From Antedon mediterranea (lineage: Eukaryota; Animalia; Echinodermata), in assembly GCF_964355755.1 (NCBI RefSeq), contig NC_092670.1:39420388-39484387 (forward strand): 64,000 nucleotides of DNA. Direction: 5' to 3'. Numbering within the stretch: the stretch's first letter is position 1; every line of letters begins with the position of its first letter. Of this stretch, positions 10,560 through 41,452 are shown one piece after another. The position numbers and the translations under genes are program-made. The notes under the pieces are model-generated. The model ran no database searches, was not told the origin of the DNA, and saw only the letters and a list, made by a program, of their open reading frames with translations.

Positions 10560-11223
10560 TTTTTATACGTTTTAGCCTCTGAAGTTGAGAACATTCAAGA
10601 AACTTCGTGGTACCCTCAGCTGTTTGTGGTAATTCGAGAATCCACTGGATTAAACTCGAGCGGATGTTTATGTCGAGCGTATAAAATATAGCACGTGTGC
10701 GATTACCAAGTTGGACGAATAAAAAAACTGTGCGAACAATAATATTTTCTGTTTGTCGCCCTCTCAATATTTGAAAGATTAAGTTTTCTGGCGATTCGTA
10801 TTTTTTATGATTAATTATTAATTACAGTAATAATAATTTTCTTTTTGTAAGTTTAATATTTCGTTAATAGGAATCTATTTGTCTAATAATTAAAACAGAG
10901 GTTAGAATAAATAACTGTACGTGACACTATACGAGGTAGAAACTAGGGCTAGGCCTAGGCCTGGCCCTCCTCTACTCTAGCAAGGCTACTACCGGAGCTA
11001 GCTAGGCCTTAGGCCGCGCCGGGTAGCAATTCTGGCTTTGCGGAAGTCTTATGCACTGCCAATAATAGTGTAGGGGTGTTGCTGTGGACTCTGCAGATTC
11101 ATATTCCTACGTTATGGTAGGGTAGGCCTAGCTAGGGCCCTATTCCATCTAACTAAATAATAAGAAAATGATTTGTGATGATTGAATGAAGTCACTTTTA
11201 ATTTTCAGGAATAAAACTCCATA
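10560..11223. promoter_or_regulatory. Probable bidirectional promoter and 5' UTR region between BAG3-like and MFF
   Basis: Divergent start codons 664 bp apart, with locally retained CpG. Transcription starts cannot be seen from sequence. Confidence 0.55.
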
Positions 11224-12882
11224 ATGACTGCGAGTTTAGATTTATCCATGTCAAGTTCATTTGACGACATGGACCATCAATATAGTGCTGACTTCAGTGA
11301 AGAAATCAACACTAAAATGAGGATACCAGATCGGCTTAGCATGGGAGCTGGAGATGATTCAATGAATATGTACGACATGGACAATGATCATCACACAGGT
11401 GGCGGGATGGAGGTACCTGATAGGATCATTATAGCTGGTAAGAATGGTGGTACTCTAGCCCATGTACTGTGTGCAGCCCATGTCATGATGATGGTTTTAC
11501 CAAGGCAATCTAACAACAGGACTCGGAGCTCACCCTGCCAAGATAGGAAGCCGTAACAGTCCTTTGATCTTATGTCTGGCTGCGACAAATACCAATTTCC
11601 TAATTTCTTTATTCCAATTTCAGGTTCAGATGAACATGTAGGTTTGAAGCGCCCTCCGAAGTTATTAGACTTTGATACACCGAATCCAGGTAAAAACGTT
11701 AAAGTTTAAAAAAGCAATAGCGTCTACTCAACCAATACCGGAATCTCTAAAAACCGGAAAAAACTGTCCAAAATCCTGAATTTTCATGAGGTCGTCCAAA
11801 AACACAGAATTTCAGAAAACCAGTATCAGGCCAGCCAATGTTCAGTATTGGAAAGGGTTGACTATACTTGTATACTATTCATAATTCAAGCCTTATATTA
11901 TTCCATATCACAAATAATATCTGTGATATGGAATAATATTCTATTACAAAATGTGTGAGCTGTTTCTGCTGTTTTGTTTATTGTAACTTTCATGTTTTTA
12001 TAGTGCACACTGTTGTCGGTTTAACCACTCCACCTCGGACGCTAACGTTAGATGAATTCAACTTTCCAACAGCAGGTGAAACTACCACCAAATCAAAACC
12101 TTCAGAAAATCAGAGTAGACTAATACCGTGAGTGACATTATTATAATCTGTTTAAGTTCTGTCTACACTATCAAACTAGTTTGACAAAAAAGTGTGATGT
12201 GCCCAAATATGGTGGTGATATACCCAAATATGGTAGTGATATAACATCATGTCTATATATGGGAACATCACATTTTTTTTGTCACATAAAGTTTGATAGT
12301 GTAGACAGAGCTTTAGTGTTCCTTTGCCTTTGTATTCAGGACTTATTACTGTAAAGTGCTCAGTAAAAGATCAGGGCTGGCATTTATCAATAAGGTTTTA
12401 TTTGTCGAATAAACCTCACGTTACAGATATAAAATGAGGAAAAATCTTCATTTTGTAGACCACTACGAAACCATGTATTTTACCTTGACAGTACTGAGGC
12501 CGAGTGACCAAGCAGGGAAACAAAAACAAAAATGATTTTATCTAAGTTAATACTTATCTAAGGAAGCCTTAAATATTGTATTGACTTAAGCAAAAAATAC
12601 ATAGTATTTAAGAGAAATGTCACACTTACGTGTGATTGGTGAATTTTAATATTATTATCATAATTAGTATTATTAATATTTATTGAATCTAATTACAGCG
12701 CTGTTGAAGAAGCCAGTATCGACACAAGCCAACTACATCAACACATACTACTTCTCTCGCACAGGTTATCGCAGTTAGAATGTGAAAACAACCAGCGCCG
12801 CCAACGGGAAAAATACCTCTACATAACTGGTGCTGTATATCTAGTATATAAAGCAATGAAATATCTCTTTGCGTCAACTTGA
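11224..12882 (+). CDS. MFF: Mitochondrial fission factor (MFF/Tango11-like), 195 aa
   Basis: Exons 11224-11437, 11624-11689, 12004-12127, 12699-12882, all phase-compatible. Repeats KMRIPDRL and MEVPDRIIIAG, the TPPRTLTL motif, a coiled coil LSHRLSQLECENNQRRQRE, and a C-terminal tail anchor YLYITGAVYLVYKAMKYLF. Confidence 0.9.
11720..11866. mobile_element. Degenerate Tc1/pogo-type MITE
   Basis: Terminus ...ggaaagggttgactata. A related copy at 47879-48050 has cagtcaactctccc...gggaaagtttacta termini flanked by TA. Confidence 0.5.
12155..12312. mobile_element. MITE family 1 (TIR AGCTCTGTCTACACTATCAAACT, TWA target duplication), representative copy
   Basis: ~23-bp TIRs, TTA on both flanks, internal 21-bp repeats. 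About 30 full or partial copies start near 925, 1203, 2842, 3376, 4146, 12987, 15850, 17865, 24005, 25872, 27067, 34298, 34831, 37180, 39724, 40645, 42820, 43325, 44761, 45507, 46352, 48270, 49998, 50698, 51900, 52527, 53065, 54493, 58810, 61580 and 62229. Confidence 0.92.
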
Positions 12883-13690: not shown

Positions 13691-15428
13691 CACTTCTCAT
13701 CCATCTGGCTGAGTCGGCCACTGCAGGAAAGTGGTTACATACACACATAATTATAATCATAATGTATGGTAACGTGTGATACAATACTTAGTAATTGATG
13801 TTTATAATTAGGAAGAGTTTGTTGTTCTGAAATTCCATTTTATATTCCTGAACCGTCATTGATTATTATAATTAAACCAAACTTTAAACTCGTTCTTTTT
13901 TTATACAATTTTTCCTTTCTGAACAACTCATTTATTCACTTTAAGCCTTGTTTATTCATTCGACATTAGTATACACTTTAAAATAAATCCTGGTGCAATT
14001 TTACCAGGAACTGGTACGTTAAATTGTCACCATGATGCCTGGGCCCAACCACAACATAAGTCTGGTTAATTTCACCAGAAAATCCCGGTAAGTTAAATCC
14101 AACGACTATCCTGGTGATAATAACCAGAATACAACGGTACTACTATACCAGGAAAGTCATAGTACTATTACTGGGTATTACTGTTCATATACTGGGCCGT
14201 GATATTTCTTCGTCCGTAAGTTGGGGAACCCTCGTGAAAAGTCATCAAGCCGCCTAGGTAGTCGATGGATTAAGCTTGTCCTGAATAGGGTTCGAATTTC
14301 ATGAGCAACTTCTTTTGAGAGAGAGATTATTAAAGGGTTGGTTATTGAAGATATATTTAGGATGTAGTTCACGTAAGGAGTCCCCAACTTATGATGTACG
14401 AACAATCACGATCGGGATCTTTTTTAGAATAGCGGATTCGCCGTTATATAATGGTATGATACTATGTTGATGGTGATAATGCCGACAATTGTGACCAGAG
14501 TGATGATTTTCATCATGATATTGGTGTTCTTTAAAACTTTCGAGTGCGTAATAATATTGTTATGATCCAACGCCTATATCGCGTAATGTATCAACAATGT
14601 GTGTATCGATTGCTTAACCAGAAAAAATACAAACAATTTAAATATCATTTAGAATTAGCTAAACCGAGATTATATCAACAATAAATAACATCGATTTTAA
14701 CACCTATCGACGTGAATGCCTTTTTGTATTACATTGGATTATAATCATTTCGCCCTTCGGATTCTTTTATGTGTCAATAATAATCGATAGTAATCAATAG
14801 GGTAAAATATTGTCATTTTTTCGAATTTGGGTTCCAGTATGGGAATGCTTAGATTCAAGAGGAATTTTAAATGGACATGCTAGTTGGTTCCTGTGAGGTG
14901 GATTGATAATGACCTTATTTCCGGTAAGTTTTTGTTATCAGTTTGATATTTAAAAAATTCTATCTTGCGCATTTTAAATTAGTTTGCGCGGAACGTGAAT
15001 CAGATGCGTATTACAGGAGCGTCATGTAACCAGCTTTTTTGCCCTCGGTGCAGTTAAGGGGAATTGGCCATTTTGCGCACAGATGATTTGAGGACATGTT
15101 GTTGCTTCTACATATATAAAACAAAACTATGATATACTAAGTTTATATCATACTTAGTTTTGTTAAAGAAAGCAAAATATACAATGTCTGCTGTCAGACA
15201 ATGATATTTTTGTTAAAATTAACCGTTTCTTTTGTCTTTTTAAAAGTGAAATAACTATTTTTGTTGATTTTTTTTCTATACAGAAGTGAATAACTTTATT
15301 TGCAAAATGGCCTACTCAATCTCATTTTATCTTTATTTTCATGTTTTTGGGACACAATACATCTTTAATGGTTCGAAATGGTACAAACATAAACGACTAG
15401 TATTTCTTTTTTATTTTACTTCCAGAAA

Positions 15429-18400
15429 ATGGACTCGGAAACGACTGACAAAGATGATAAACCGGATAATACGTCATTGAAAGGGGTCACTGACCGAACC
15501 AAAGAAGAGGACGAAGAGTACAAAGTTATACAGCTTTTTCGAGAAATAATCGCAAAGTTTTCAAGTGAAGATGATAAAAAGGAGGAAGGAGAAGCATCGA
15601 AAAATGATGACGTAACGATGTCAGACGATGTGTTAAGTCCTGATGGGTCAAGGGTCAACAGCCCTGTGCCTAACGTGGGAGGGGACGGGCAGTATGGGGT
15701 GGCCATGCCCGATGATAACACAATGGGACAAGATGAAACCGCTATTGATTCAGGTATGTTTTGTGTTCTCAATTTTAAATAGACGTGTCATAAGCTTTTA
15801 GAATAAAACAGTGTTCTGTTTAAGTGGGAGAGCCAATTCTTTTGAGTTTGACAAGTTTGACAAAAAAGTGTGATGTGGCCAAATATGGTAGTGATATTAC
15901 AACATAATTTTTTTTACATAAAGTTTGATACGGTGATACTGTGAGACAGAGTTTTACATGATTAAATATTATTCACTATCAAGGAACATATATTGTAAAA
16001 GAATGTCCCTTTCATTAACATATATTAACCATTTTTCGCAGAAATTAAACAAACGGAATACGTAATGCCCAATATTCTACCGGATAAAATATTAAACTTC
16101 CTGAAAGGTAGGCTTGGTGGTTTGCCGTTAGAGGTTATCCCCCCCCCCCCCCGCCGCACCTCCTATTTACCATGGAGGTATTGTTTTTATACCTCCATGG
16201 TTTTACTCACCAGTTGAAGCTTATCGCATCTGCACTCTCGGTGGTATTTTATTTCACCTTTCACCATATCTACGCTTTACTACCCAATCCATCCTTCACC
16301 CATTTTCCACATTTTTTGTATCATTCCGAATGCTTCCATTCCAATATTTTCTTATTTTAATAAAAGAAAAATGTTATTTTGTTGTTTTTTTGATAATCTG
16401 ATGATCAAGCATTTCAAGCAATCTTTGCGCGGCTGATGATTAAAGTTAGTGTGCTGTAATAATGTATGTGATACTTTGTGTGTATTCATGTAATTCACAC
16501 AACATCATACAGACCACCGTCATCATAGTCATCATCATTATCGTCTCATATTATAATGACTTAGTTTACGATTGTTTCAGCTGAAGATGGCGGAATTAGT
16601 CTAGTGTGCGTCATTTTAAACGCATCCATAATGCAACTAATATTCGGTGTAATATGCATCAGTCTTGGAATAGCGGCAATCGTCATCAAAATTCCCGCTT
16701 ACCACATTGGTGACCCAATCTGGACCGGATTTCTTGTACGTATACTTTTTGTATTAAACATTCAATGATTTATTGGACGAATGTCGCATTTCATGAAATT
16801 CAAATAAGATAACAATTCAGCTTGGTTGTCACTAGAGACGCAACACATGGAGACGTCATAAGCGCAACGTAAGTGATTTGGCCAATCACAAGCGATGGAT
16901 TATTCGAACTGTCGCTTGATTACGTTGCGTCTACGTCCTTGCGTTGCGTCCTAGTGTGGGTGGTAACCAAGCATTAGAAAGAAAATTCACTTAATGATTA
17001 GCATGAATAACCTAATTCTATTTTCCAGTTCTACGTAGTAACTGGACTAATTGGAGTTGTCACGTGGAGATTTCCAAAAGATGGATTGGTAAGGTCTTAA
17101 TAATTTAACATACTCTTTACCATACCGTGAGTGACGCGCGACACGAAAGCACGTTGGTGCGGGCATCCATGCGTCAACATCCGCGATCATCATTCGTATA
17201 CGCGCGTCATCATCATATGACGCTAATCGAATCAAACTGTGTGATATCATGATTGATAGGTATAAATTAGTCTTTTCTCCTTTATCCAAAGATGGTTTTA
17301 TATTTATGTTGCTTTACTATAGCCTAAGCCTGTTTTCCTCTAGGCGTCGAATTTGTGTGTGAATATTTTTCAATCTTGTGACGCGAACAAATGCGCTACC
17401 AATCAAAAATTCGCGCGAATGCATAGACCTATAGTGGAAAACAGGCCTTAAAGTTGTCTTTCTTTTCGGCGTTCTATAGGTTGCTTTTATTTAAGTGATG
17501 TCCATTGTCGCTCTACCTAGTAATGCCCTTCTTATCGGCGTTCCATAGGTTGTAAGCTATCTCGTTAATGCCCTTCTTATCGGTGTTCCATAGGTTGTGA
17601 GCTACCTAGTAATGTCCATCTTGTCGACGTTTGCTTCGATTCAATTGATGTCCATTGCGGCATTTTCTATGAGAATGGAAACTTTTTTCGACGGTGAAAA
17701 CAACAGTGGGAGCGCTGAGCAATTGATTCGATATCAACTATATGGTCAACAGATATCAGATAGCAATGCAGATGGGTTTTCAGTAAGTTTTTATAGATTT
17801 TTCAAAAGAGAGGATTTTACTTACAGTAGAGAAAGCGGACGCGGTATACGTCATCTTATGGCATAAGCTCTGTCTACACTATCAAACTAATTTGACCAAA
17901 AAAAAGTGCTATGTGCCCAAATATAGTAGTGATGTACCCAAATATGGTAGTGATATGACATCATTATCCATATATGGGCACATCACATAATGTTGTTGTC
18001 ACATAAAGTTTGATAATGTAGATAGAGCTTTACTTACCGGGGCGGATTGCAATAAAGGTCTTAACCGCGGTCTTAGACTTAAGCCTAGGCTTTATACCGC
18101 CCTCAATGGAGGTCTTAGAATAAAGCCTCTTGCAATATTAAGTCTAAGCCTACGAGAGGACGTTTCGCGGTTTTAGATTATAAGCCTCCTCGTAGCAGGC
18201 TCAGAATTCGTCGCGAAGACAAAAAAAATGGCGAACTTTATCGCGGTGCAAGACTATCTCGAGAGAATAGGTCGTATTTTTCGCGATAGATTGCATCCGC
18301 TTGATAAATATGATGACAACGAATTATATAGAAAATTTCGGTTCAACCGGCAAAGTATAATGACGCTCAGCGATAATCTAGCAATTGATTTGAATGTAAC

Positions 18401-21400
18401 GAATAGGAATAATGCAGTGCCACCGGTCCTCCAAGTGTGCACAGCAAGTGGGTCAATGCATAGCATTTCCGGCGATCTTTCTGGTAAGTATTAATATTAA
18501 TAATTAGCACAACTACAATAATAATATTGTTTAGTTTTTAGTGATAATAATGAAGGTATAAAATTAGTAAATTATAATTATTTATACCTAGGCCTAGCTA
18601 GACTATGACTATCGCGCCGGCGCTAGTTTACTCTTGCACCTAGCTTTACCCATTTAAAAACATTCACTCGCTGCACGGCGGCGGTATGGTGAGTGAGCGG
18701 AGTCAACAAGCCAACTAGTAAATAGGCTGGGATATGACCGGTTGGGCCGCCGACAAGTTGAGCCGCCGGTAATTTCTATGAAACGCCCAGTGCGTCTTTT
18801 ACGACATTTCGCGTAGTGATAGAGGGGTGTCCTAGTACATAAGTTCATGGTCTTTAGGTTTATTGTGTCATGAAAATAAATAATAATTACATACTACAAT
18901 TTTGTTGGTTTGAACCGCCATAACAACACAGCAAAGGAAAGTAGTCATATTTAATAATTTAATTGTTTTTAATCTTTCAAATCTTTCAAATTCTTTCAAG
19001 TGCAGTGCACTCCATAATATTTTTCTTGCGTAAAATCATGTTGTCTCTCAGGACTAATAGAGTATTGATACTCTTCGAATGAGGTTAAATAATAATTATT
19101 TTTTATCTACTATCTTTTAATATCATATTTTATTGAATTTTACAATGTTAATACACAAAATATTTTACTAAAAAACGGTGATTTTATGCAATTATTTTAC
19201 CGAAAAATGGAGTAGGCCTAGTTCATACAACTGCCGCCTAAGGGGGCAACATGTTTACGTCATTTTTGGATAAAAACGATCATTTTCGGTCATGTTTTAG
19301 GCCTTATATTTTGGAATCTACAAGTCAGATATTCATAATTATTTCTCTTTAATTATAATATTTAATAATATATACTAAAAACCGTGATATATAAACTTTG
19401 GAATATACATCGTTATATCTAATAATTAATATAAATAGAACTTCTATTAAATAGAAACGAGCACCGGCGAAAGTAAGCATTTGGCGTTTCATAGAAAATA
19501 ACGTTTTTCTGGCGGCGGCTCAACTTGTCGGCGGCTCAACTTGGCCTAATCCAAAATGCTGCTTGTTTTTTTTTTGTATCTTTTAAGTTTTAGTTTTTAA
19601 TAAAAATAAAATCATGGTAAAAATATCTATAATTTTGATATATAAATTAAGTTACATTTTTCTTTTTCTAAATAAAATTTACACATATTTATTCTCTATT
19701 ATCAATTGTTATTTAATACTCTTCAGGTTAATTCAAGATTATAAAATTTTGTATTCCTTTGTTTGTAGGAATTCATGAATCGACAGCTTGCCGAATTGTA
19801 AGGCAAGTTTCACTGGCCTTACAGAGACATATGAACGAGTATGTGTTTTTCCCGATGGATGCAGCAAGCATTAGGGAAACAAAAATTAAATTTCATGACA
19901 TATCTGGTTTCCCTAATGTCATTGGAGCGGTTGATGGCACTCATGTCCGGATACAAGCTCCAACAGTCGACGAATTTGTTTATGTGAACAGAAAAGGATA
20001 TCATAGCCTGAACATCCAAGTCGTCTGTGATGCAAACATGCGATTCACAAATTGTGTAGTGCGTTGGCCTGGTTCAACGCATGATTCCAGAATTTTTAGG
20101 CAGAGTGGTCTTGGTGTAGCATTTGAAAATGGTGAAATGCCAGAAGGATATTTGTTGGGGGATTCTGGGTATGCGTTACGGCCATTTCTGTTGACACCGT
20201 TTATAACGAACGAAGGTATAACAATGTACATTCCATAACAAGAAGTATTGTCGAGAGGACAATAGGTGCTTGGAAAAGGCGGTTTCAGTGCATGCACGAA
20301 GAAAACCGTATGCAGCCTCACAGAACCTGCGCTGTGGTAGCAGCAACAATGGTCCTTCATAATATGGCCCGTAATTTAGGTTTACCAGAAATTGAAAATG
20401 AAGAGGATATTGATATAGGGGATGCAGGGCAGCGCAATGAACACATTGAAGACAACAATGGACGTGCAATCAGGCAGATGGTTGCAAATGCGTCTGACGG
20501 AAATCCTTAGCAGTACCCAAAATGCAATGGGTACTGGCGGACAATTCAAACATTACTGCAGTGTACTGTAGTTCACAGGGTCAGCGTCTGTCAATCAAAT
20601 AACCATTATTTTGCATTTCAGCTAAAAGTTGCACAGCAATAACCGGTTAAATCAAAGGAACACTAAAATCAAAAAAGAAATTTATTCTGAAAGGCAGAAT
20701 TTCACAAAAAAACAAACTTCAAAACGGAAAATACAGATACAAAGTACAATTTCTACATCCGGTAACGAATAAAAATGTTGAAGATTGGATTCCCGTAGAA
20801 AACATTGCCACAAAGGAACGGGAAGAAACAAAGACATTAAGTAAACGAAAGAAATTGAGGGAAAAACTGTACATTCCATTAAGAGGTCATGATAAATTTA
20901 TTGAAAGGGATTTCTCTGAAAAGGGTATATCCTTAAGGTATAACCCACCTGGTAATGGGAATTGCCAGTTTGATTCAGTAAGGTTCGCGCTACAAGATTT
21001 AGGAATTTTCCGAACGGCCTACCAGCTATGTGCTGAAGTAGTTGGCCACCTTCGGGATAACCCCGATAATATAGACGGCATGCCTCTCGAACTGTTTGTC
21101 GGAATGCCGTGGTCCAATTATACGGACCAAATGGCAAACGCAGGAACGTATGGGGACCACATCACACTACAAACACTGTCGAATATATATAGTATTCAAA
21201 TAGTAGTTTTGTCTTCTTTGGGTTCTGATGCAAGAACTGTAATAAACCCTTTACATAGTTTTCCGTTTGGCACAATTCATCTTGGACACTATGGAGAGGA
21301 ACACGGCGAACACTATATTTGTGTGAGTGAACCCACTGACAATATTGAACAATCGCAAAAGGATTTATCCGATTCACAATCCAGTGACTTTGAGATTGAT

Positions 21401-24310
21401 GCCTCACCTCCGATATATCGAAGCTCGCTCAAAGATTCAGGTGAAGATAATATCTTTACACTACAATTAAATGAAAATGATCGTCAATCTACAGTTGGTA
21501 TTAACAATGTCCCTAATGAAATTCTTGAAAAAATAATTTCAATGGCAATATCTTCATCGGGTTATGATTGGCCTAGCCATGTTTGTAAATCTATTCTAGG
21601 CCTATATAAGAATAAAATCACCGTTATTATTTGATTTAACACTTAAAACTCGTTCAATTGGTTATCTTTGACGATAAATAATACGTAAAAGCAACAAAAA
21701 GAGAGGTTTAAGACTGTTTTAAGACTCCTTTGAGTAGGCTTTAATTTTAAAGACCGTTTACAGGTTAGACCGCGGTATAGCAATGGTCTATAATATAAGA
21801 CTACTTGCTACGTCACGAATTATAGCCGGCTAAGCGCTAAGACTGGTTATAGACCGCTTATAGCAATCCGCCCCTGGTCTCCTCTCTGAGCTAGACTATA
21901 AATAGTAGGCCTAGCCTAGCTAGAAAGGGTTAGGTTTGTTAGTAAGTTAAATTGCTCAGCCAAATTTGGAATTGAATCTACATAATTCATTAATCATTTA
22001 ATATAAACAATAACTGTATTCCACCCAGCAAGAAAAAAATAAAATACCTAAAATTAAAAATTCTACAATATGTTGATAGAATAATAAGCGAAGATACGTC
22101 GACTCGAAAAAATACCGGCTTCGTTCCACATGATTGACTTTCATGCTTTCGTTTATGAATATAGTACGCTGCAATTGCCTTTTTTTAAAAGCATTAACAA
22201 ATTTTTTTTCGAGAAATTATGCAACCTTAAAAACCGTATCATCACATTTCCGAAACACTATATACTACTAGTATAATTCGTTGTTTTCCATCTTTATATA
22301 TTCTCCGACTGTTGAACTTGTTGAAGTAGTAGGCCTCATACACCTTTGTCTGAAAAGGAAAGCATATAAATTATAATAAATATTATATAGTTTAGCCTAG
22401 TCCTAGGTATACTCTAGGCCCTACTATCGTATTACAGTATAATATAATGTGAAATATTATTAATTGGCCAGTCTATTATTATACTATAGGCCTATATACT
22501 CTTACAGGCTAGATAGTACATTTGCCGGCCGGATACACATGCAAAAGTGGAATTTAATCTTGAATGAAAGGTTAGGCCTACACTCATTAATTAGGCCCGC
22601 CTAGCTAGGCCACGGGCTGTATTATCTTATATGCAGTACAGTACTACTAATAATACTACTAGCTTTAGGCCTACTAGATAGAGAGGAGCCTAGGCCTAGA
22701 GTAAAGTAGTAGCAATAAACAATATAAAACTTACTACAGTAAATGTAATTAATATTCAGCCGTCAGTGGTATAAAAATGTGTTTCGATTTCGTTCTAATA
22801 TTTCGTTTACACACACCTCCTTATTAAAATCCACACGTGCAATGTACACGGTTGCGGGGTCTCATAAATATTCATAAATCATCCCTTGTTTGTAGTAAAT
22901 GGCGTGTTGTTATTGGTTGTTAGAAAAGTCATTTAATGATTGATAGCACTTTCTCGCGGAGTTTTACCCACGTGTTATTGTGTCTATAGCTTGAGGGCGT
23001 TTATCTATTTACGATAGCTTTTATTATTTTTGTACATACAAATAATGCCCTCAACGGTGGTAACTAGGGTTTTCTATCGGGCTTAGCTTAGACCGCGATA
23101 TTGCAATCGACTTTGCTGAGAGGCTTAGCTAAGACTTTCGCGAGGGGTCTTAGGCTTAGATCTAAGCCTAAGACAAAGTCTTTATATTGCAATCCGCCCC
23201 GTGTTCGAGTTGTTGAAGATCGGCGCTCGCGTACAAAAGCAGGCCTACAATCAATTCATTAGTAATTTAACGCACGTACGCGCGCGTACACGCAGAATAA
23301 ATGATGTGCTAAATGAGTCCTAATGACGATGTTATTTATGACGGTGGCTGCAACATTAATGCCAGAGCGTATTTATAATATTTATATCTTATTATATTAC
23401 GTATTTATAATTATTCATTTCAGAAATCTGAACGTTTGGCACTAGAGATTCTAATTTTCTTCATAGCTTTTGTAGAGACGGTATTCGTAATCATAATGGC
23501 AGTTGCTACGTGTAGTTTGTGGCCAACAAAATCCACAGTAAGTAAGATATATATCTTATGACGTTTCTTCGGTAATATGCCTACTTACTTGCCAAGTCCC
23601 CAAAAGTAAAATACCACCTGTAACAATATGTTAATTATACGTAGCCTAACTTGACAAACACATTGCCTAAAGCAGCTTGGTTCCTAGGACGCAGCGCAGG
23701 ACGTTGACGCAACGCAATCGAATTGACCAATCACACGTGACTGTTCGATTAATTTATCGCTTGTGATTAGTCAAATCACTGTGCGTTGCGCTAAGTCCTT
23801 GATTTTGCGTCCTAATGAGAACGAAGCTTTAAACAGTATAGCGTAACAGTATTATTGCATTGATTGCGGTGACGAAGAATGAATTACAGTATTGTTTAAT
23901 ACCAAGTGTAAGGGCAGGCCTAAGACTAAATCCCTGGTTAATTTAAAATTGAAGTTACTTGCCATATAGAGATATTAAGTTGTATCGTGTATTGTATTGT
24001 GTATAAAGCACTTTATGTGACCATGGAGAAATAAGGAACTTATTTCTCCATGATGTGACAAAATGCGATGTGACCATATGGACACGGTGACATCATATAA
24101 CTACCATATTTGGGGATATCACTACCATAGTTGGGCATAGCACAACTAGTTTGATAGTGAGACAGAGCTTTGTTGTTCTGTTCATAATAACATAATTTCG
24201 TTTTATTCCAGAACGAGAAAAAGGATGAAAATCATGCTGCTATTGATGATAAGAAAAATGATTTCGATTTAAAAGGCGACACCATAGAAAAACCAGCATT
24301 CATTTATTAG
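15429..24310 (+). CDS. MS4A/CD20-like four-transmembrane protein with long acidic N-terminus, 335 aa
   Basis: Exons 15429-15753, 16042-16107, 16581-16735, 17029-17088, 17594-17782, 23424-23537, 24212-24310, all phase-compatible. Four hydrophobic segments with CD20-family motifs QLIFG, GDPIWTGFLFYVVTGLIGV, YLVMSILS and ILIFFIAFVE. Confidence 0.82.
18228..20510 (+). pseudogene. Harbinger (HARBI1-like, DDE_Tnp_4) transposase pseudogene
   Basis: Exons 18228-18483 and 19769-20510. Motifs FRF, IGAVDGTHVRI, NRKGYHSLNIQVVCD, WPGSTHDSRIF, LLGDSGY. After a frameshift near 20205 the reading continues RRYNNVHSITRSIVERTIGAWKRRF...VLHN. The usual LRF/Y motif before SGS in exon 1 appears deleted. Confidence 0.92.
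18729..19552. mobile_element. Non-autonomous TIR element inserted in the transposase intron
   Basis: Left gccgccgacaagttgagccgccg...tttctatgaaacgcc is mirrored by ggcgtttcatagaaa...cggcggctcaacttgtcggcggc at 19483-19552. Confidence 0.75.
20651..21634 (+). pseudogene. Transposon-borne open frame: chromo/SH3-like segment + OTU-like cysteine protease + F-box-like motif, probably a 5'-truncated fragment
   Basis: Frame is open from 20651, upstream of the listed TTG start at 20855. OTU motifs PGNGNCQF (Cys), GTYGDHITL and HLGHYGEEHGEHY (His). INNVPNEILEKII resembles an F-box start. No in-frame ATG precedes the catalytic Cys. Confidence 0.75.
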
Positions 24311-24354: not shown

Positions 24355-24600
24355 AGGGTGGGGTGGGCCTGTGTATAGTGGCCTGTCGGTGGGCCTAGGT
24401 TATGTGGGTCGTTGTGGGGTGGGCCTGTGTATAGTGGCCTGTCGGTGGGCCTAGGTTATGTGGGTCTGTGTGGGGTGGGCATGTGTGGGGTGGGCATGTG
24501 TGGGGTGGGCATGTGTGGGGTGGGCCTGTGTGCGGTGCGCCTCGGTTATGTGGGCCTGTGTGTGGTGGGCCTCGGTTATGTGGGCCTGTGTGTGGTGGGA
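24355..24600. repeat. G/T-rich tandem repeat (tgtgtggggtgggca-type 15-mer and derivatives) downstream of the MS4A-like stop
   Basis: Read directly. It explains ORFs 24412..24612 and 24451..24645. Confidence 0.85.
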
Positions 24601-24900: not shown

Positions 24901-25080
24901 AGCTTGGTTCCCACTGGGACGTAACGCAAGGACGTAGACGCAACGCAAGTGAATTGACCAATCACAAGCGATGGCTTATTCGCTTGTGATTGCTAACTGT
25001 CCATAACTTCGCTTGTCATTGGCTAAAACGCTTGCGTTTCGTTTACGTCCTTGCGTTACGTTCTAGGTGGGAACCAAGCT
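24901..25080. mobile_element. MITE family 2, intact copy
   Basis: agcttggttcccac...gtgggaaccaagct flanked by TTA on both sides. Confidence 0.88.
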
Positions 25081-25737
25081 TTAGAGGTGAATAGTCATCG
25101 GTCAATGACGTCATTGATATGACACATGCATTCTCCCATATTCATACTACGTTTGTATGGAACGCCGTTTAAGCAACAATTCGATGCGTTTGCGTGATTA
25201 AACAAAAACATACACATTATCTGATAAAAAAGTAACCAATTAATTACATTTGTGCAATATTACTTTATTAAAAATAATGTGTTACCCATTATTTAACATT
25301 TTATGAAAAGTACTGTTAAATAAATTAAAACCCTTTGTGCAATATTACTTTATTGAAAATAAGTGTATTACCCGTTATCTAACACGCTATAAAAAGTTAC
25401 TGTTTATTAAATGAAAGAGATGTTAACGAATATTTTTAATTAGATTAAAGTTGCTAAACATGAGTGTACCTATGATATAAATATTATTTAAAAGTGATAC
25501 CAAGTCTGTGTATAGTACATACTGCATTATAGTATTTATAACTAATTATGTTGCGTTTATTTACCATTGTGCTATAAGATAAATGCATAAAATCATGAAG
25601 GCATAATTAATAATCAAATATTCGTCAATGATTAAAGCTGCTACTTAATGGAATGTTGTTTCTGAATGTTATAACCATGGGCCTACGAGGTCATAGGTCA
25701 TAACCACAGTAGTGCATAATTGTCTGCTTGTTTGCAT

Positions 25738-28394
25738 TCAAAAGAGCATCATATCACTGCACTGGTAAAATGCTGGTGGGGCCTGCGGGTTGTTGGTTTC
25801 ATAGACAACCTAAATGAAGATTAAGTAGATTAGAAATAATAATAATTCAGTTTTTTTTTAAATATTTTTCAAAGCTCAGTCTACACTATCAAACTTCATG
25901 TGACAAAAACATGCGATGTCATCATTACATATTTGGGAATGTCACTACCATATTTGGGCACATCACACTTTTTTGTCAAACTAGTTTGATAGTGTAGACA
26001 GAGTTTTATTTTGATCAAACAGACTCTGTCCAACTAATGTTGTTATAATAATATAATATACAAAATTAAAATTGCAACAATATTGAATTATGATGATATG
26101 TGGAGATGAAAAAATGGTAGATAATAAACCTACCTGCATTATCACTTTAGTATTTGGTGGTCTGTGAAAAGAAGAAAATTATTTTTTTAAATTAAATCAG
26201 TACATGTTTTCCATTCCAATTCACTAATGTGCAAACATCACACCGTTAAATCCACAAAAAAAACAGTAAGTTTTGACGTTAAATGTGCAAAAGAAATCCT
26301 ACAAATGATCTAAAAATTATTTGCACATTTTGTAGATTTTGCACATTTAACATCAAAACTGATCGCTTATACATTAAACAGCGTGATGTTCGCACATCAG
26401 TGGATTATGAATTTCTACAGATTTGTAAATTTGAGAGTGTCATGTTTGCACATTTGAGTGTAAAATATATGTACAGATGTGGTTGTTTGCACAAATGCGA
26501 CTTTTTGCAATTTTCACGTGCCTACTGTTTTATTATAGGAATACAGAAGATTTAATAGAACTAAAACAACCACATGAAATATTTCTTTTTACCTGGTTGG
26601 CAATGTAACATTGACAGAGTAGACTGTTAAAGATGGCTCCCCCTTATCGGCTACTTTTGCCAAGAGTTTGAAATCCATTGTCTTGCTATCACTCATCATC
26701 ACTGTAAATTGACCCTAAAAATTAAAAATGTTGAATAAACATTAAGCAAAAGATGAATGTAATGATTGTACTGGGTAGAAATGGGTGGGGACACTTATAC
26801 CCAGCAAACTATTTTACTATTTTTCTAAATTGAAATGTTAAGATTATAAGATGAATGTATTGAATATATTTACTGGTGTTGCAGCTGTCCAATGGTCAAG
26901 ATTCTTCTGAAAGGAGACCGTGTAGTTACCACCAGATCTGAGTGTATAAAAAAAACAAACTTGAATTATTGATATTTAAAGAAATTTGACAAAACTTGAG
27001 ACATCTTGGGAATTTACATAAAAAAGGGATACTGACGTAGAGGTCTATATGAGATACACTGCCTTAAGCTCTGTCTACACCATTAAACTTATGTGACAAA
27101 AAAATCTGATGTGCCTATAATATAGACACGATGTCATATCACTACCATATTTGGGCACATCACTACCATGTTTGAGCACATCACTACCATATTTGGGCAC
27201 ATCACTACCATGTTTGAGCACATCACTACCATATTTGGGCACATCACTACCATGTTTGAGCACATCACTACCATATTTGAGCACATCACTACCATGTTTG
27301 AGCACATCACTACCATATTTGAGCACATCACTACCATGTTTGGGCATATCACTACCATGTTTGAGCATATCACTACCATGTTTGAGCACATCACTACCAT
27401 ATTTGGGCACATCACTACCATATTTGGGCACATCACTACCATGTTTGAGCATATCACACTTTTTTTTGCCAAACTTGTTTGATAGTGTAGAGCTTTATAG
27501 TCTGCACTTTAGGTGAGCTTATATAATTATTATTATTTATTATTTATTCAGGCGAAAGATACATTTTACAAAATATAATACAAATCAACAAATTAAACAA
27601 ACACAACGCAAAAGAAAATATAAAATCATAGTCACTAGCTGCCAGTAAAGCACAAAAGCAGCCTAAGCCACTGTCACCAATTAGGTGTGTACCTCCAACC
27701 AGTGACTAATTATTACAAATAATAATATATATATATATGATAAAGTTAATATCTTATAAAGAATAACTTAATTATATTAAGCCTATAGTTTATACATGTA
27801 AATGCTAAATTAAATTATAAATAAACTATTATAAGACACATTTAAATCAGTTTTAGATATGTACATACTTGGCTCCATATTGTGGAGACATTGGGTTGCG
27901 TCCTCCACATGGTCCTTGTTCCAAACCACAGTCGCTTGCCGCTAAAAATATTAATAAATAAATAATAATCTAAAAAAATTAAAATAAAAAGTATACCGAT
28001 CATTTAATTAATTCAATTGCATTGATGTCTTCCAATCCAAACTTCTTTGGGTTGGTAATATTTAGGCTACCTGCCAGCCATATATTTAACACATAAGAAA
28101 GCTTGCATGAGTGCTGTCGTGTAAGACACATAACAAACGTCGATACTACTGTTAGTTAGGCCTGCAGTACTTTTCATTCAGCCAGGCCAGTGGGCCTGGC
28201 TGTGTGAGCTAGCTGGAGGCGAATCATCCAGAACGCTGCAGCTGCAGCACAGGCCTGACAATTTACAAACAAAACACAACCAAACCTTTGTTGTTGATGC
28301 CTATCAATGACCCCCGTTGTGGAGGACTTAACATGCACATATGTGCAGTTATACATCCGATAATTGTGCAAAGTATTACAAGCACACGAATCAT
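25738..28394 (-). CDS. Secreted N-terminal-histidine protein, LPMO-like (X325/BIM1-type fold predicted), 155 aa
   Basis: Exons 28394-28286, 27941-27869, 26937-26874, 26714-26593, 26161-26134, 25809-25738, all GT-AG and phase-compatible. Signal peptide MIRVLVILCTIIGCITA is followed by HMCMLSPPQRG...GPCGG...FQKNLDHW...PPAFYQCSDMMLF-stop. Confidence 0.85.
27067..27494. mobile_element. MITE family 1 copy with internal 21-bp unit expanded to about 15 copies
   Basis: TIRs and TTA flanks retained. Array of acatcactaccatatttgggc variants at about 27136-27455. Confidence 0.9.
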
Positions 28395-29859: not shown

Positions 29860-32185
29860 AAATGAATATTCAACGAGCTAGAGTACTGAATCTTAATGTG
29901 TTTACACATTCACTTTCCTCATGAATATTCAACAAGCTGCTGAAGTACTGAATCTTAATGTGTTTACACATTCACTTTTCTCATGAATATTCAAAAGCTG
30001 CTGGAGTACTGAATCTTAATGTGTATACACATTCACTTTCCTCATGAATATTCAACGATCTGCTAGAGTACTGAATCTTAATGTGTTTTCACATTCACTT
30101 TTCTCATGAATATTCAACAAGCTGCTGAAGTACTGAATCGTAATGTGTTTACACATTCACTTTTTTCATGAATATTCAACAAGCTGCTGGAGTACTGAAT
30201 CTTAATGTCTATACACATTCACTTTCCTCATCATGAATATTCAACAAGCTGCTGAAGTACTGAATCTTAAAGGAAAGGAACACCCTAATATCTTACCTAA
30301 CTATTATAAAAGTAACCCTACCAACTTAATATTCAGCACAATTTATGTTTAAATCGGATTTGTAGTTTTCTAGTAAACAGGATTTTAAAGCTGTTTTCAA
30401 GACATTTGAAAATCGCCATCTTGTGCTCATGGCAGCCTGTTTGTGACGTCAGATACGGCCGACGAAAATTTTAAGATTCGCGGTTGCATTCAGCGCTTCT
30501 ATTGGCTAAGCGAATCCGCTAATATGATTGGCTAATAACGCGACATGCGGTCATGCAGGACGGCGATGACACGGTATGAGCATGCGCTGGCTTGGTAAAC
30601 AAACCTTCGATCGATCTTTTCTTCTGCAAGCCAATTCGTAAATCTTTCAGCTATTGTTAATCTATTGTTACTTTTATTGCCTAGCTGTTTCAAACGGGAT
30701 TTGGTAGGGGAATTAACTAGCAAACCTTCGAAACGGAGGCTGTTGGTTGACGATGCAGTGTCTACTTTATTTTCGTTCAACACGAGTTCTAGGCCTAGTA
30801 AGGCATACAGTACAGATACACTGGCCGAAAGTACACCATTCTTCGACGGCTTGTTATGCTCGAGAATGTTCTTCTTCTATTCTTTTTTCCTCATCAGCAC
30901 GACGCAAAACTAACTCTCTTTCTGTATATTCTGGTTCCAAATTTTTTGAATTATAAAAACTCCAAGCCATATTCCGAAAATATTAGGTATGTTAGGCTAT
31001 TTAATTGATTTTATTTATGGTTATATCCCGCACTTCCATATTGAAATACTGTACTAAGACGATGGGCGCTTGGATTTGCTTGAATGCGTCCACCTAATCT
31101 GACGTCACATAATTGCTCTTAACCTGTCAAAATGGCGCTGTTCAATTTCCGATATTTTGTCGTTTAAAAGTCTATTTTTTAACTAAATTGCTTACTATTG
31201 TACCTTGAACCATTGTAATCATGTTTTTATTACATTTATCTATAAGCACAGTGGCACATTTAGCCCAGGGTGTTCCTTTCCTTTAATGTGTATACACATT
31301 CACTTTTCTCATGAATATTCAACAAGCTGGTAAAGTACTGAATCTTAATGTGTATATACATTCACTTTCCTCATGAACATTCAACAAGCTGCTGAAGTAC
31401 TGAATCTTAATGTGTGTACACATTCACTTTCCTCATGAATATTCAACAAGCTGCTGAAGTACTGAATCTTAATGTGTATACACATTCACTTTTCTCATGA
31501 ATATTCAACAAGCTGCTGGAGTACTGAATCTTAATGTGTATACACATTCACTTTCCTCATGAATATTCAACAAGCTGGTAAAGTACTGAATCTTAATGTG
31601 TATACACATTCACTTTTCTCATGAATATTCAACAAGCTGCTGGAGTACTGAATCTTAATGTGTATACATTCACTTTTCTCATGAACATTCAACAAGCTGC
31701 TGAAGTACTGAATCTTAATGTGTATACACATTCACTTTTCTCATGAATATTCAACAAGCTGCTGGAGTACTGAATCTTAATGTGTATACATATTCACTTT
31801 CCTCATGAATATTCAACAAGCTGGTAAAGTACTGAATCTTAATGTGTATACACATTCACTTTTCTCATGAATATTCAACAAGCTGCTGAAGTACTGAATC
31901 TTAATGTGTATACACATTCACTTTTCTCATGAATATTCAACAAGCTGCTGGAGTACTGAATCTTAATGTGTATACACATTCACTTTCCTCATGAATATTC
32001 AACAAGCTGGTAAAGTACTGAATCTTAATGTGTATACACATTCACTTTTCTCATGAATATTCAACAAGCTGCTGGAGTACTGAATCTTAATGTGTATACA
32101 TTCACTTTTCTCATGAATATTCAACAAGCTGCTGGAGTACTGAATCTTAATGTGTATACGCATTCACTCTCCTCATGAATATTCA
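29860..32185. repeat. 62-bp minisatellite, about 21 copies, derived from the final codons and stop of the PRKCSH-like gene
   Basis: Unit tcatgaatattcaacaagctgctggagtactgaatcttaatgtgtatacacattcactttcc. Its reverse complement reads HEESECVYTLRFSTPAAC-stop. The array is interrupted at 30271-31282. Confidence 0.95.
30271..31282. mobile_element. Kolobok-like non-autonomous DNA transposon, 1012 bp
   Basis: TTAA duplicated at 30267-30270 and 31283-31286. Perfect 16-bp TIR AGGAAAGGAACACCCT with AG...CT termini. The interrupted repeat unit resumes exactly after the element. Confidence 0.88.
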
Positions 32186-35100
32186 TTACATGGTCATTAA
32201 GCCCACATAAAAATTCAACCTGTAAAGAAAAAAGAAATTGTCAATGTCAGAATGATTCATATAATGTTATTTAAAAAAAATATTTTTCTTTTTTTCTGTT
32301 AAGAGTTAGTCATTCAACTCCAGTACTAAGCAAATGCAAAGATTAATATACAGTATTGTATAATATCAAAGAATATATATCACAAGAATGAGTAATCCGC
32401 GAAAGTGATTAAACACTAGTTTGTTAATAAATATGTATTATAAAATAGTTTACAATTGCAAAAACTATTATCATAATTCTATTTAATGTGACATGTATCA
32501 TGTCTATTAAATCAAGTCTTATTTAGTATGTATACATCCGCCCTTATGAGGGCGGGCATCACTCTCTGGAGCTCTCTGTTACAAATTTCTCATGCAAAAA
32601 TCGCGGAATACTCATTCTTGTGATATATATTCTTTGATAATATGAAGAATAATTCGTTTTTTGTTGAATATGCCATTTTATTGTCACCTAATAGTTATCC
32701 ACTGTTACCAAAAATTTGATCGAAAAGAGAAATTTAATATGCTATTTGTTTGTGTATTATGTTTAAGTAGTTGTGGTTTTCCTTGTTTATTCTGTTATAT
32801 TTGTTTAGGACCACAATGGAAATAAGTTTGCCGTCTCGGTACTTTTTTGTGTTTTTATCCTATTGATTTTATATCAGAATAAAGAAATAATAAATAAAGA
32901 AAATGTATTTATCTAAAAAACTGTAAATTTAAAGCAAAAAATAGTCAAATTGGCTGCCACGAAAGTGATTAACGTTATATTTAAAATACAAAATAATCTA
33001 TTCAAAGTCTGATTTTATTAATCTTTATTTATCATGTTTTTGGGGGGACAATACATCTTTAATGTATCCTAATAACAATTCTACAGTCCCTTATTCCATA
33101 ATACTCACCTGTGTTTTTCTTTGTACTCCCTCAGGGCAATGTCTAGAATCACCATTGACCATTACAACTATATTAGTACCATCTTTCTTATTTCCTTGGA
33201 CGACCGTTCTACGTCCCATGTTATAGTAGAACTCCCCATTATCTTCTCTAACATACCGATATGGACACACAAGATAGTTACTTTTTGCAGTGTTATACTG
33301 GAAACACTCCTTACTTAACCTATAAAACTCTCCTTCTTTTCCATAAATCTGTTTTAAATATAAGAAAAAAACGTAATATTTTGTATTACCAGGATAGGAG
33401 ATTTTTAAGTCCAATAGTTAGCATTTGAATTGTGATGACCTATGACCTGTTAGGCCCTGTTAATTCATTATGTGCATGTGTAGACACGACCTATGAACTG
33501 TTAATTCATTGTGTGCATGTGTGGACATGACCTATGAACTGTTAATTCATTGTGTGCATGTGTGGACACGACCTATGAACTATTAATTCATTGTGTGCAT
33601 GTGTGGACATGACCTATGAACTGTTAATTCATTGTGTGCATGTGTGGACATGACCTATGAACTGTTAATTCATTGTGTGCATGTGTGGACATGACCTATG
33701 AACTGTTAATTCATTGTGTGCATGTGTGGACATGACCTATGAACTGTTAATTCATTGTGTGCATGTGTGGACATGACCTATGAACTGTTAATTCATTGTG
33801 TGCATGTGTGGACATGACCTATGAACTGTTAATTCATTGTGTGCATGTGTGGACATGACCTATGAACTGTTAATTCATTGTGTGCATGTGTGGACACGAC
33901 CTATGAACTGTTATGCACTGTTAATTCATTGTGTGCATGTGTGGACATGAAGAGCTTGCTTACTGGATTCTATGACACAGTTTTGGCAGATTCTAGGTCC
34001 AGACGACGAACACAATAATGGGTAGGTCAAAAGTCGTCAGCTTTCACCCATTGAAAGCTTTCTACTGTTGTAACCATCAATGAGACAAGTCCTGTGATTG
34101 GTTAACTTACCCCATCTCTGTGTCCTTTTCCAGCCTCAACATACTTTTTCTTTAGTCTCATACCCAGTCGTTGTTGTGCACTTATATACTTGTGTTCAAA
34201 TAAGTCTTTACACACGTTACCACATGGTGAGATTTCCAGACCTTTTACTGTTGGATTACCTAAATAAAGGGTGAACAAAATATAGTAGAATCCATCTTAA
34301 GCTCTGTCTACCTTATCAAACTAGTTTGATAAAAACAGTGTGATGTGTCCAAATATGGTAGTGATATGCCCAAATATGGTAGTGATATGATGTCATCATG
34401 TCCATATATGGGCACATAACATTTTTTTGTCACATAAAAGTTTGATAAGGTTGTAGACAGAGCTTTATATAATAACCTGCTCCAAAAAGTCTGGTTGTCA
34501 GTAGCATAAGAAATGAATGAACAAATAGTAAGTAATTAATAACTATATAGAAATGAGACCGGCGCTATATAATGTCATTGGTACATGCTAACCTTTGACC
34601 TTGTTAAGACTAAATGGTCTGTCCCACTCATCAGAACCATCACAACAGTCGCATATCCCATCATTCACTCTGCTTGCTACGATATACTCACCACTCCCTT
34701 GGCAGTAAAACCTGAAACATAATAAAAATTTATGAAATGAATTTAGAATGAAGTATTTTTTGGAGGGAACCCAATGATCCCCAAATACTAGACCACATTC
34801 GGTTTGTGATGACCTGATGACCTAGGAACTAGGCTCTGTCTACACTATCAAACTAATTTGACAAAAAAAGTGTGATGTGCCCAAATATGGTAGTGATATG
34901 CTTAAATATGGTAGTGATATGACATCATCATGTCCATATATGGGCACATCACAGTTTGTTGTCACAATTGAATGCTCCCTACAAGTGACTTATTGATGGC
35001 TGGTACTTTGCAGTGCAATAAGATTTCATTGGCTTCATTACCTTCCATTGGAGCAGGCTGATGTACCAGGCTCATCCGAACCGTCTTTGGTACAATCGCA

Positions 35101-35388
35101 ATAATCATCATTTACACTTGCCCATGGTACAGTCTTACCATCAACAAAACACTGAAACCCACGGTTTGACTTGGGTCTATACAATTCTTTATCTTCTAAG
35201 CGAATTCCTCTCGGTACTTCAAAATCAAGTTCTGCCTTCCTTTGGTTCATCAATTCCAATTGTTTCTTGGAGTCCTTACTGATAATGCGCAAGATTAAGG
35301 CTTGGAATATGAAGTAGCAGATGGCCAGACCTAACAGCAAAGTGAGCCATTGAAGAGATCGACTTTTTTTACGTACAAATTTCATCAT
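32121..35388 (-). CDS. Glucosidase II beta subunit-like (PRKCSH-like) protein, short form with N-terminal membrane anchor and MRH domain, 317 aa
   Basis: Exons 35388-35042, 34711-34593, 34259-34111, 33348-33109, 32219-32121, phase-compatible. [28 protein letters not shown] and SRVNDGICDCCDGSDE form the G2B/LDLa-like domain. YGKEGEFYRLSKECF...NGDSRHCP...RKTQVEFLCG...ECVYTLRFSTPAAC forms the MRH domain. Confidence 0.87.
33457..33950. repeat. 41-bp intronic minisatellite, about 12 near-identical copies
   Basis: Unit gacctatgaactgttaattcattgtgtgcatgtgtggacat. Confidence 0.93.
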
Positions 35389-40400: not shown

Positions 40401-41452
40401 TATAAACCTGGACAATATTTATTTTAAGCTATACTGTACTGTAGCTACAGTATTACTATACACTAACTATTCAAATACAAATAAGGTATACAGTAGCAAT
40501 TCTCATATTATTAATGTTTTGAAAACCGATACAGCTGTGTATAACAATCATTGCAATAGGGTTGGTTGTCTATTGTGTATTTATCTGTCACTGTGCTTGC
40601 AGATTCATATTGGTAGGCACAATATTAACAAATCTAAAGCTGCAATGCTCTCTCTACAAACTTTATGTAAACTGTATCAAACTTTATATGACAACAAAAT
40701 GTGATGTGCCCATATATGGACATGATGATGTCATATCATTACCATATTTGGGCATATCGCTACCGTATTTGCCAAACTATTTTGATATTGTAGACAGAGC
40801 CTTACTGTAAGCCTCTTATGTGATCGTACAATAAGATTCCTATTGTTTCGTTCATTTGAGTGAACATCTTCCATCTTGATTGGTGTGGACAGTAACAAAT
40901 TCAAATGCTATAAAATAAGAATAAACGAATGACCATGTTTTTATTGACCATTTCACTTACTTGGTCATGCTTACATTATACTGTTAGTAATAAAAATGCT
41001 AGTAAAATTGATTAAAATTTTCTAAGAAAGACCTGAAGGTATGTTTTTTTCAGACTAAATTACGTAAGCATTGGAAAAAAGGATGTGACAAAAATAATAA
41101 TAAGTGGTAAATGACCAATAGAATAATTATTTAGATAATGACAAGATGCATTGATACTATTTTTGTACATCATCATGTAAAAACATTAAATGCTGCGTGG
41201 TGCTAATCAATCTATTTTCTTGTTTTAGCAGATGTAGAATTGTTTGAAATTCAACTATGGCCTAAATTTACTCAATCAATCAACGGCTCTCATTTTAATC
41301 TACGACGTCAGCGACTAGTTCTTTGAAAACTACTAGTTGTAACGCTAACTGTATTAGCTGGAGTCAAGAATATTCAATCAAACATTTTAAAGAGATTATA
41401 TCGTAGCAAAACAACTAAAACATTTATTAATTTGTTCTTGAACCGAATAAAT

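Follow-up and report, generated by a model that had tools for sequence, protein, structure and literature searches.

A nameless crinoid gene encodes a predicted histidine-brace protein with the lytic polysaccharide monooxygenase fold and belongs to a large eukaryotic family

AA15 was the only characterised family of animal LPMOs (lytic polysaccharide monooxygenases) found in print (PMC5823890). The small X325/Bim1 proteins are listed as fungal, and an Asp carboxylate serves as their fourth copper ligand (PMC10952591); the BIM1-like members studied cut no polysaccharide (PMC7924993). A second-sphere Gln or Glu is present in every LPMO whose function has been characterised (PMC10472438), and a free equatorial position separates the LPMO TaAA9A from Bim1 and CopC (PMC7529816). 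AA18 was named once, without definition (PMC13353379). In this study, a gene of the crinoid Antedon mediterranea was analysed in a window of 64,000 nucleotides (NC_092670.1, positions 39,420,388 to 39,484,387), the window being the whole stretch of DNA examined. An initial annotation, made from the sequence alone, had described it as a hidden gene for a secreted LPMO-like protein of a possible metazoan family. The product is an LPMO-fold histidine-brace protein by prediction, and in the features tested it did not match AA15, X325/Bim1 or the bacterial family SCE4755 cleanly. The preferred reading, a soluble secreted redox copper enzyme that attacks the glycan coats of ingested microbes, was given a probability of about 0.45.

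The gene lies on the minus strand and has six exons (Table 1). Splicing by coordinates gave a frame open for 155 amino acids, followed by a stop codon. All five introns have the form GT...AG with pyrimidine-rich acceptors, and their lengths are 344, 931, 159, 431 and 324 bases. Contigs of sequencing run X1 skipped exactly 324, 431, 159, 931 and 344 bases, with joints reading CT..AC on the plus strand and depths of 942-2150, so that the six-exon structure proposed earlier was recovered at all five joints. One contig spans the joint 27941/28286 and extends to 28432. X1 is probably RNA, a type that was guessed rather than recorded; splicing was seen in this one of four runs, and the contigs give neither strand nor expression level. 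The other runs, X2, X3 and X5, which come from one sample and are DNA-like, showed none of the five intron joints (0/3). The coding part has a GC content of 44%, compared with 34% for the region. The window and the runs differ by 37 listed substitutions, all of them outside the exons, which is weak support, as many of them sit in repeats.

A search with exon 1 returned a single protein, P0001, an NCBI "uncharacterized protein" of A. mediterranea that is identical letter for letter to the spliced product. The existence of the gene was confirmed; it is annotated by NCBI but nameless, and because the spliced protein is P0001, the word "hidden" was an overstatement. Motif scanning of the 64 kb found no second copy in the window, and single exons searched against Pfam gave no match of note. 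The tree placed the protein together with one from Anneissia, also a crinoid (support 1.0), within a clade (0.95) of echinoderm, hemichordate and scallop sequences; this grouping fits vertical descent. Contamination, which had been doubted earlier on account of the introns, and a retrocopy were both ruled out, because the gene has introns and groups with Anneissia within that clade.

Cleavage of the signal peptide after residue 17 would leave a mature part of 138 amino acids. In the spliced product, as had been read from the letters before, His occurs only at positions 1 and 59 of this part, the four Cys are at 3, 24, 31 and 132, and two sequons are at 48 and 100. The P0001 search gave 24 proteins among 27 candidates, and these 24 formed the profile seed. 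Residue counts are given in mature numbering for an unselected alignment of 170 proteins, and the denominators vary with coverage. The N-terminal block was conserved at His1 (152/155), Cys3 (152/155), Pro7 (154/156), Gln9 (150/156) and Arg10 (152/156). Both brace histidines were kept, with His59 in 165/169, next to Asn56 (167/169) and an aromatic residue at position 60 (161/169). Further conserved residues were Cys24 (165/165), Cys31 (167/168), Asp88 (168/168), Tyr118 (157/161), Cys132 (160/161) and Asp134 (153/160). Position 129 was Phe in 152 and Tyr in 9 of 164 proteins. By motif, 204 of the 248 stored proteins had a complete domain. Of these domains, 202 begin with His, 199 have Ala, Gly, Ser or Cys immediately before the domain, and 200 have a hydrophobic stretch within the 20 residues upstream. 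This layout agreed with the proposed signal peptide and His1, and signal cleavage is predicted to expose His1. Disulfides Cys3-Cys24 and Cys31-Cys132 are predicted from the Cys that bacterial relatives keep.

The AlphaFold2 model, built from the 24 sequences, had a predicted local distance difference test score of 86.3 and a predicted template modelling score of 0.82. The model is a beta-sandwich, and the top Foldseek matches were LPMOs. Full structural alignment gave Z 12.8 for TdAA15A (root-mean-square deviation, rmsd, 3.0; 129 aligned; 22% identity), Z 12.2 for LaX325 (rmsd 2.7; 117 aligned), Z 11.1 for EfAA10A and Z 11.0 for MtAA16A. In a wide search of 48,161 solved chains, the values were Z 12.8, rmsd 3.1 and 129 aligned for TdAA15A; Z 12.0, rmsd 2.7 and 117 aligned for LaX325; and Z 11.3, rmsd 2.6 and 128 aligned for AoAA13. 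The top ten chains (Z 10.1-12.8) all have the LPMO fold, nine of them being LPMOs or LPMO-fold AA-family proteins, with LaX325 at rank 2. As judged from the model, TdAA15A and LaX325 are tied as the best structural match. The alignment starts at model residue 18, the predicted His1, in nine of the top ten and at residue 16 in the tenth, and residue 18 pairs with the first residue (His1) of the solved LPMOs. In the family profile, His59 pairs with the second His of the AA10 structure 5FTZ, and Phe129 with its axial Phe. Phe129 lies nine residues before the domain end, as does Tyr184 in TdAA15A. From this alignment register, His1, His59 and Phe129 would converge around copper. The model predicts an LPMO-type beta-sandwich histidine-brace protein, the fold that the initial annotation had expected.

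An ordinary divergent AA10 or AA15 member acting on chitin, to remodel it or to digest chitinous food, is very improbable. AA15 (TdAA15A, PDB 5MSZ) is likewise animal, intron-bearing and secreted, has a histidine brace and carries its axial aromatic residue in the same register, and TdAA15A is the top structural match. An axial Phe, as found here, is typical of chitin-active AA10 and of TdAA15B (PMC5823890). The sole Pfam match of P0001 was LPMO_10, just above the cut-off (23.5 bits compared with 23). This match is partial, running from 62 to 182 of the 183 profile positions, and no more than 6 of the 24 homologues pass that model. TdAA15A is larger by about 55 residues (about 190-195 amino acids compared with 138) and has five disulfides, whereas the window protein has four Cys; two residues before the second His it has Ala, whereas the window protein has Leu57. 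It was not matched by the 113-sequence family profile at an expect value (E) of 10 or below, and reached E 0.38 with a mixed profile only. Among solved structures, AA10 gave the best sequence match (SlAA10E, 5FTZ; E 0.0005, 23 bits; Z 10-11); its second His, Trp/Tyr position and axial Phe align with the family. Unlike AA10 proteins such as SmAA10A/CBP21, the family has a much shorter N-terminal loop without the conserved Glu, Leu for Ala before the second His, and invariant Asn56 and Asp88. The bacterial SCE4755 proteins scored up to 54 bits compared with 23 bits for the best AA10 structure, bits being compared because the databases differ in size. The earlier view that the protein is not AA15 held for size, Cys count and profile score; in structure, TdAA15A is as close as LaX325.

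X325/Bim1 (PF20238; LaX325, PDB 6IBH-6IBJ) has in common with the window protein the small LPMO-like fold and His1 after a signal peptide, and LaX325 is of similar size. Differences from X325 are that the family keeps the aromatic axial residue and that the last loop of the window protein's subfamily lacks a conserved acid; among the named matches, no fungal protein was found. P0001 gave no match to BIM1-like_dom (PF20238). Of the 24 members, 7 pass BIM1-like_dom and 11 pass neither model, and no member passes both BIM1-like_dom and LPMO_10; UniRef automatically labels some animal homologues "BIM1-like domain". The picture is that of a separate, widespread, small histidine-brace family falling between the two Pfam models. 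No published study of the family was found in the literature searched, which misses most subscription journals, supplements and the founding X325/Bim1 papers. Its novelty is provisional, because those founding papers and supplements, which possibly list non-fungal homologues, lay outside the search.

The nearest bacterial kin found was NCBIfam NF043005 (SCE4755, myxobacteria), with a profile-profile probability of 99.6% and E 1e-24 over 149 columns. SCE4755 proteins were also the nearest bacterial clusters by language-model features (0.85-0.88), a value at the level of a lead. P0001 scored 24.4 bits with NF043005, below the curated cut-off of 75; 22 of the 24 members matched it at E<=1, with a best E of 1.8e-8. 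An SCE4755-type motif, which fixes Glu at position 55 by its pattern, found 67 loci, nearly all labelled myxobacteria or deltaproteobacteria. Of these loci, 65 gave a protein, and all 65 proteins scored with the eukaryotic family profile; the six bacterial proteins examined with NF043005 all pass it. The two families have in common His1, Pro7, Arg10, Pro-Cys31-Gly, His59, Asp88, Gln115, Cys132 and Asp134, and the second His of the SCE4755 proteins aligns with His59. Asp88 was kept in 25/25 bacterial relatives. SCE4755 members differ in an axial Tyr (25/25), an Asp two before it (21/25), the lack of Cys3 and Cys24, the lack of the aromatic insert after His59, and, mostly, a C-terminal sorting tail; a long branch of 1.69 sets them off (support 1.0). 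On these sequence comparisons, SCE4755 is the bacterial sister family. The bacterial neighbourhoods were not conserved (266 open reading frames in 183 clusters; the two largest are kinases, at 10 loci each). In the literature searched, neither a functional study of SCE4755 proteins nor a paper that names them was found.

Among 1.84 billion representatives, the family profile matched 700 clusters at E<=0.001; stricter limits left 359 (1e-10) and 95 (1e-30). Another search, based on words, yielded 149 matches, 120 of them listed. Most matches are nameless, and the host picture is carried by the named ones from these searches, with the best 150 of the 700 clusters covered. Named animal hosts are sponges, Trichoplax, many molluscs, an annelid, a brachiopod, bryozoans, rotifers, crinoids, urchins, a sea cucumber, hemichordates and amphioxus. 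The other named hosts are Phalansterium, Cavostelium, Clastostelium, Rhizamoeba, Polysphondylium, two foraminifera, Lapot and Entosiphon, which represent amoebae (Amoebozoa), Foraminifera, Cercozoa (one cercozoan) and Euglenozoa (one euglenid). The term "metazoan family" was too narrow because of these members and the bacterial sister family: the family is large, eukaryotic and wider than animals. No arthropod, nematode, vertebrate, cnidarian, fungal or plant name was among the named matches, which does not imply absence from those groups. Pattern scans with the eukaryotic motif matched 97 stretches in GTDB genomes and 103 in viral contigs, with 0 confirmed in either set; such scans miss distant kin: the SCE4755 proteins escaped them.

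The family contains two subfamilies, a Lys55 type and a Gln55 type, split with a support of 0.997; when a joint tree of fewer sequences was built, support for a single Lys55-type group was only 0.42. The window protein is of the Lys55 type, which has 170 members, 157 of them stand-alone and 160 with a sequon. The Lys55 type appears to have no anchor, because 157 of the 170 end within 15 residues of the domain. The Gln55 type has 34 members, 31 with long C-terminal parts, and all 27 non-redundant members carry Glu125 in the last loop. Examples are P0119, P0134 and P0138-P0170; hosts of this type include amphioxus, Owenia, rotifers and Polysphondylium. Most members are fused to an ependymin-like domain (a weak match) or to a beta-propeller of about 360 residues. 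The ependymin-like domain was found in 2 of 36 long relatives, below the Pfam cut-off. The model of the amphioxus fusion P0159 showed the same domain with a beta-propeller, the propeller being generic only. A 311-residue protein of the bivalve Tegillarca, P0184, scores as two tandem domains. The nameless relative P0049 has a Cys-rich tail that looks disintegrin-like by eye, with no Pfam match.

For the preferred reading, the protein would be secreted and signal cleavage would expose His1. The LPMO-type sandwich would bind one copper through His1 and His59; copper binding is very probable. The copper site would stay open, because no Asp from the last loop covers it. In the Lys55 type, an Asp or Glu occurs anywhere in the last loop in 58/156 proteins, at no fixed place. 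The LaX325 copper ligand, which we take to be Asp122 of the last loop, falls at Pro126 in the register counted from the end, where no conserved acid is found. That the copper is reduced and that H2O2 or O2 is used are fairly probable. For a glycan substrate in the gut lumen or food vacuole, the odds were put a little short of even. If the protein is an enzyme, Lys55, Asn56, Asp88 or Gln54 would take the role of the second-sphere residue, because the usual Gln/Glu is absent from the common position. The conserved polar residues Gln9, Gln54, Asn56 and Asp88 are placed here by alignment. The conserved aromatic residue after His59 suggests a sugar-stacking site. Tyr118 is paired with the AA10 Trp that precedes the axial Phe by nine residues, a register that would be that of SmAA10A Trp151. 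SmAA10A Trp151 is a copper-proximal hole-hopping residue (PMC12818417). The named hosts feed on suspended matter, deposits or films, or are phagotrophic protists. A link to feeding was inferred from these lifestyles and the weak ependymin fusions; the ependymin family has lysosomal members and cathepsin fusions (PMC6363788).

Several observations weigh against this enzyme. The usual Gln/Glu position, two before the axial residue, is Pro127 here and is variable in the family (Pro 51, Ala 38 and Gly 18 of 156), whereas TdAA15A has Glu and PcAA9D has Gln at that place. No invariant Glu was found in the N-terminal loop in the 170-protein alignment. The lack of Gln/Glu at this second-sphere place, which the initial annotation had not noticed, speaks against classical LPMO catalysis. 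The copper might also be capped by Asp88 or by Asp/Asn58. The domain has only 138 amino acids, so its binding face would be small, and Pfam found no carbohydrate-binding module in the 36 long relatives. BIM1-like_dom is the most-matched Pfam family, with 23 of the 24 homologues matching it; the X325/Bim1 kinship supposed at the outset was borne out in this way. The link to feeding covers the named matches, most matches being nameless.

The main rival, a protein that carries or scavenges copper without redox activity, as Bim1/X325 or CopC would, is unlikely as judged here. Such a protein would hold Cu(II) in the food vacuole or outside the cell, its fourth ligand being Asp88 or Asp58, and pass it to a transporter or buffer it. 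The BIM1-like_dom matches are consistent with a carrier, as are the rank of LaX325, which shares first place among the structural matches and shows the smallest rmsd of the leading three (2.7 Å in full alignment), the lack of Gln/Glu at the common catalytic position, and the invariance of Asp88 in eukaryotic and bacterial proteins alike. Position 58 fits a ligand poorly, since it alternates between Asp (103/156) and Asn (47/156). The axial aromatic residue and the conserved Tyr at the hole-hopping register are retained, which also speaks against a carrier. Bim1 is GPI (glycosylphosphatidylinositol)-anchored (PMC10952591), whereas the window protein, as first read, has no GPI-like tail and ends four residues past Asp134; a hydrophobic C-terminal tail was found in 4/170 Lys55-type members and in none of the other 166. 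Around the bacterial relatives, no copper gene was found in the 26 neighbour families scanned, of 38 recurrent ones.

A copper oxidase without a polysaccharide substrate, like the AA16 protein of Myceliophthora, is improbable. It would form H2O2 or oxidise small phenols, either to kill microbes that are ingested or that invade, or to supply further oxidative enzymes. For MtAA16A, oxidation of small compounds and a boost to AA9 enzymes are described (PMC10088020). The open-looking histidine brace, the small surface and the lack of a gatekeeper residue at the common position would suit such an oxidase, and AA16 is structurally close (Z 11.0). The second-sphere Gln is retained in MtAA16A (PMC10088020), whereas the window protein has no Gln at that position, and the aromatic residue after His59 hints at sugar stacking.

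The histidine-brace call is sound, with an enzyme and a carrier as the two main candidate functions. The family offers two natural versions of the active site, one with Lys55 and no loop acid, the other with Gln55 and Glu125; this pairing makes the question of enzyme or carrier directly testable for the histidine brace. If active, the glycan-attacking enzyme would provide an oxidative step in the digestion of microbes by sponges, bivalves, echinoderms, amoebae and foraminifera, and an oxidase scaffold of 138 residues. A more specific version, in which an LPMO family new to description, old enough to span animals, Amoebozoa, Rhizaria and Euglenozoa and with a myxobacterial sister family, oxidatively opens the walls of prey microbes during digestion without the Gln/Glu held to be essential in LPMOs, by means of a Lys55/Asn56/Asp88 second sphere, is doubtful. 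Were it to hold, phagotrophy and suspension feeding would for the first time be linked to an oxidative step that cuts glycans.

Table 1. Coordinates of the LPMO-like gene and of the repeat elements in its introns (window positions).
Feature	Position	Strand	Content or remark
Exon 1, coding part, 109 nt	28286..28394	-	Start codon, signal peptide, His1, Cys3, Pro7-x-Gln9-Arg10
Predicted 17-residue signal peptide	28344-28394	-	In exon 1
His1 codon	28341-28343	-	In exon 1
Exon 2, 73 nt	27869..27941	-	Cys24, Pro30-Cys31-Gly32 motif
Exon 3, 64 nt	26874..26937	-	Strand ending Gln54-Lys55-Asn56-Leu57-Asp58-His59-Trp60
His59 codon, predicted second copper ligand	26892-26894	-	In exon 3
Exon 4, 122 nt	26593..26714	-	Core strands, invariant Asp88
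Asp88 codon	26646-26648	-	In exon 4
Exon 5, 28 nt	26134..26161	-	Spliced model and run X1 joints
Exon 6, coding part, 72 nt	25738..25809	-	Tyr118, last loop, Phe129, Cys132, Asp134, stop
Phe129 codon, axial position	25768-25770	-	In exon 6
Probable 3' untranslated region, several AATAAA	25046..25737	-	X1 contig 25046-25807 joined to exon 5; true end beyond contig evidence
Inverted-repeat element like a miniature inverted-repeat transposable element (MITE)	25871..26007		Intron 5; outside protein
Related element expanded by 21-bp tandem array, 15 copies (27138-27457)	27066..27491		Intron 2; outside protein

The 14-base end motif of the MITE-like elements occurs 30 times in the 64 kb, compared with 0.04 expected, and some copies carry the 21-bp array. 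The neighbours in the window, housekeeping genes and a transposon, are uninformative on the function of the LPMO-like protein. A gene resembling the glucosidase II beta subunit (PRKCSH-like; 30532-35388, minus strand) lies upstream of it. A RING-IBR-RING ligase gene with a likeness to RNF19 by eye is at 41327-56781 (plus strand). At 8121-12882, a gene with WW and BAG domains (minus strand) and one for mitochondrial fission factor (Mff; plus strand) are arranged head to head. Exon-like hydrophobic frames at 15393-17866 (plus strand) look like an MS4A/CD20-type membrane protein by eye; the two pieces scanned have no Pfam match. In the stretch 18177-21634, fragments of a DDE transposase (DDE_Tnp_4, Harbinger-like) precede a 327-residue frame with an OTU-like protease domain; the stretch is probably a mobile element. 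A G-rich tandem array with periods of 15, 30 and 56 lies at 24358-24599, about 1.1 kb downstream of the stop codon.

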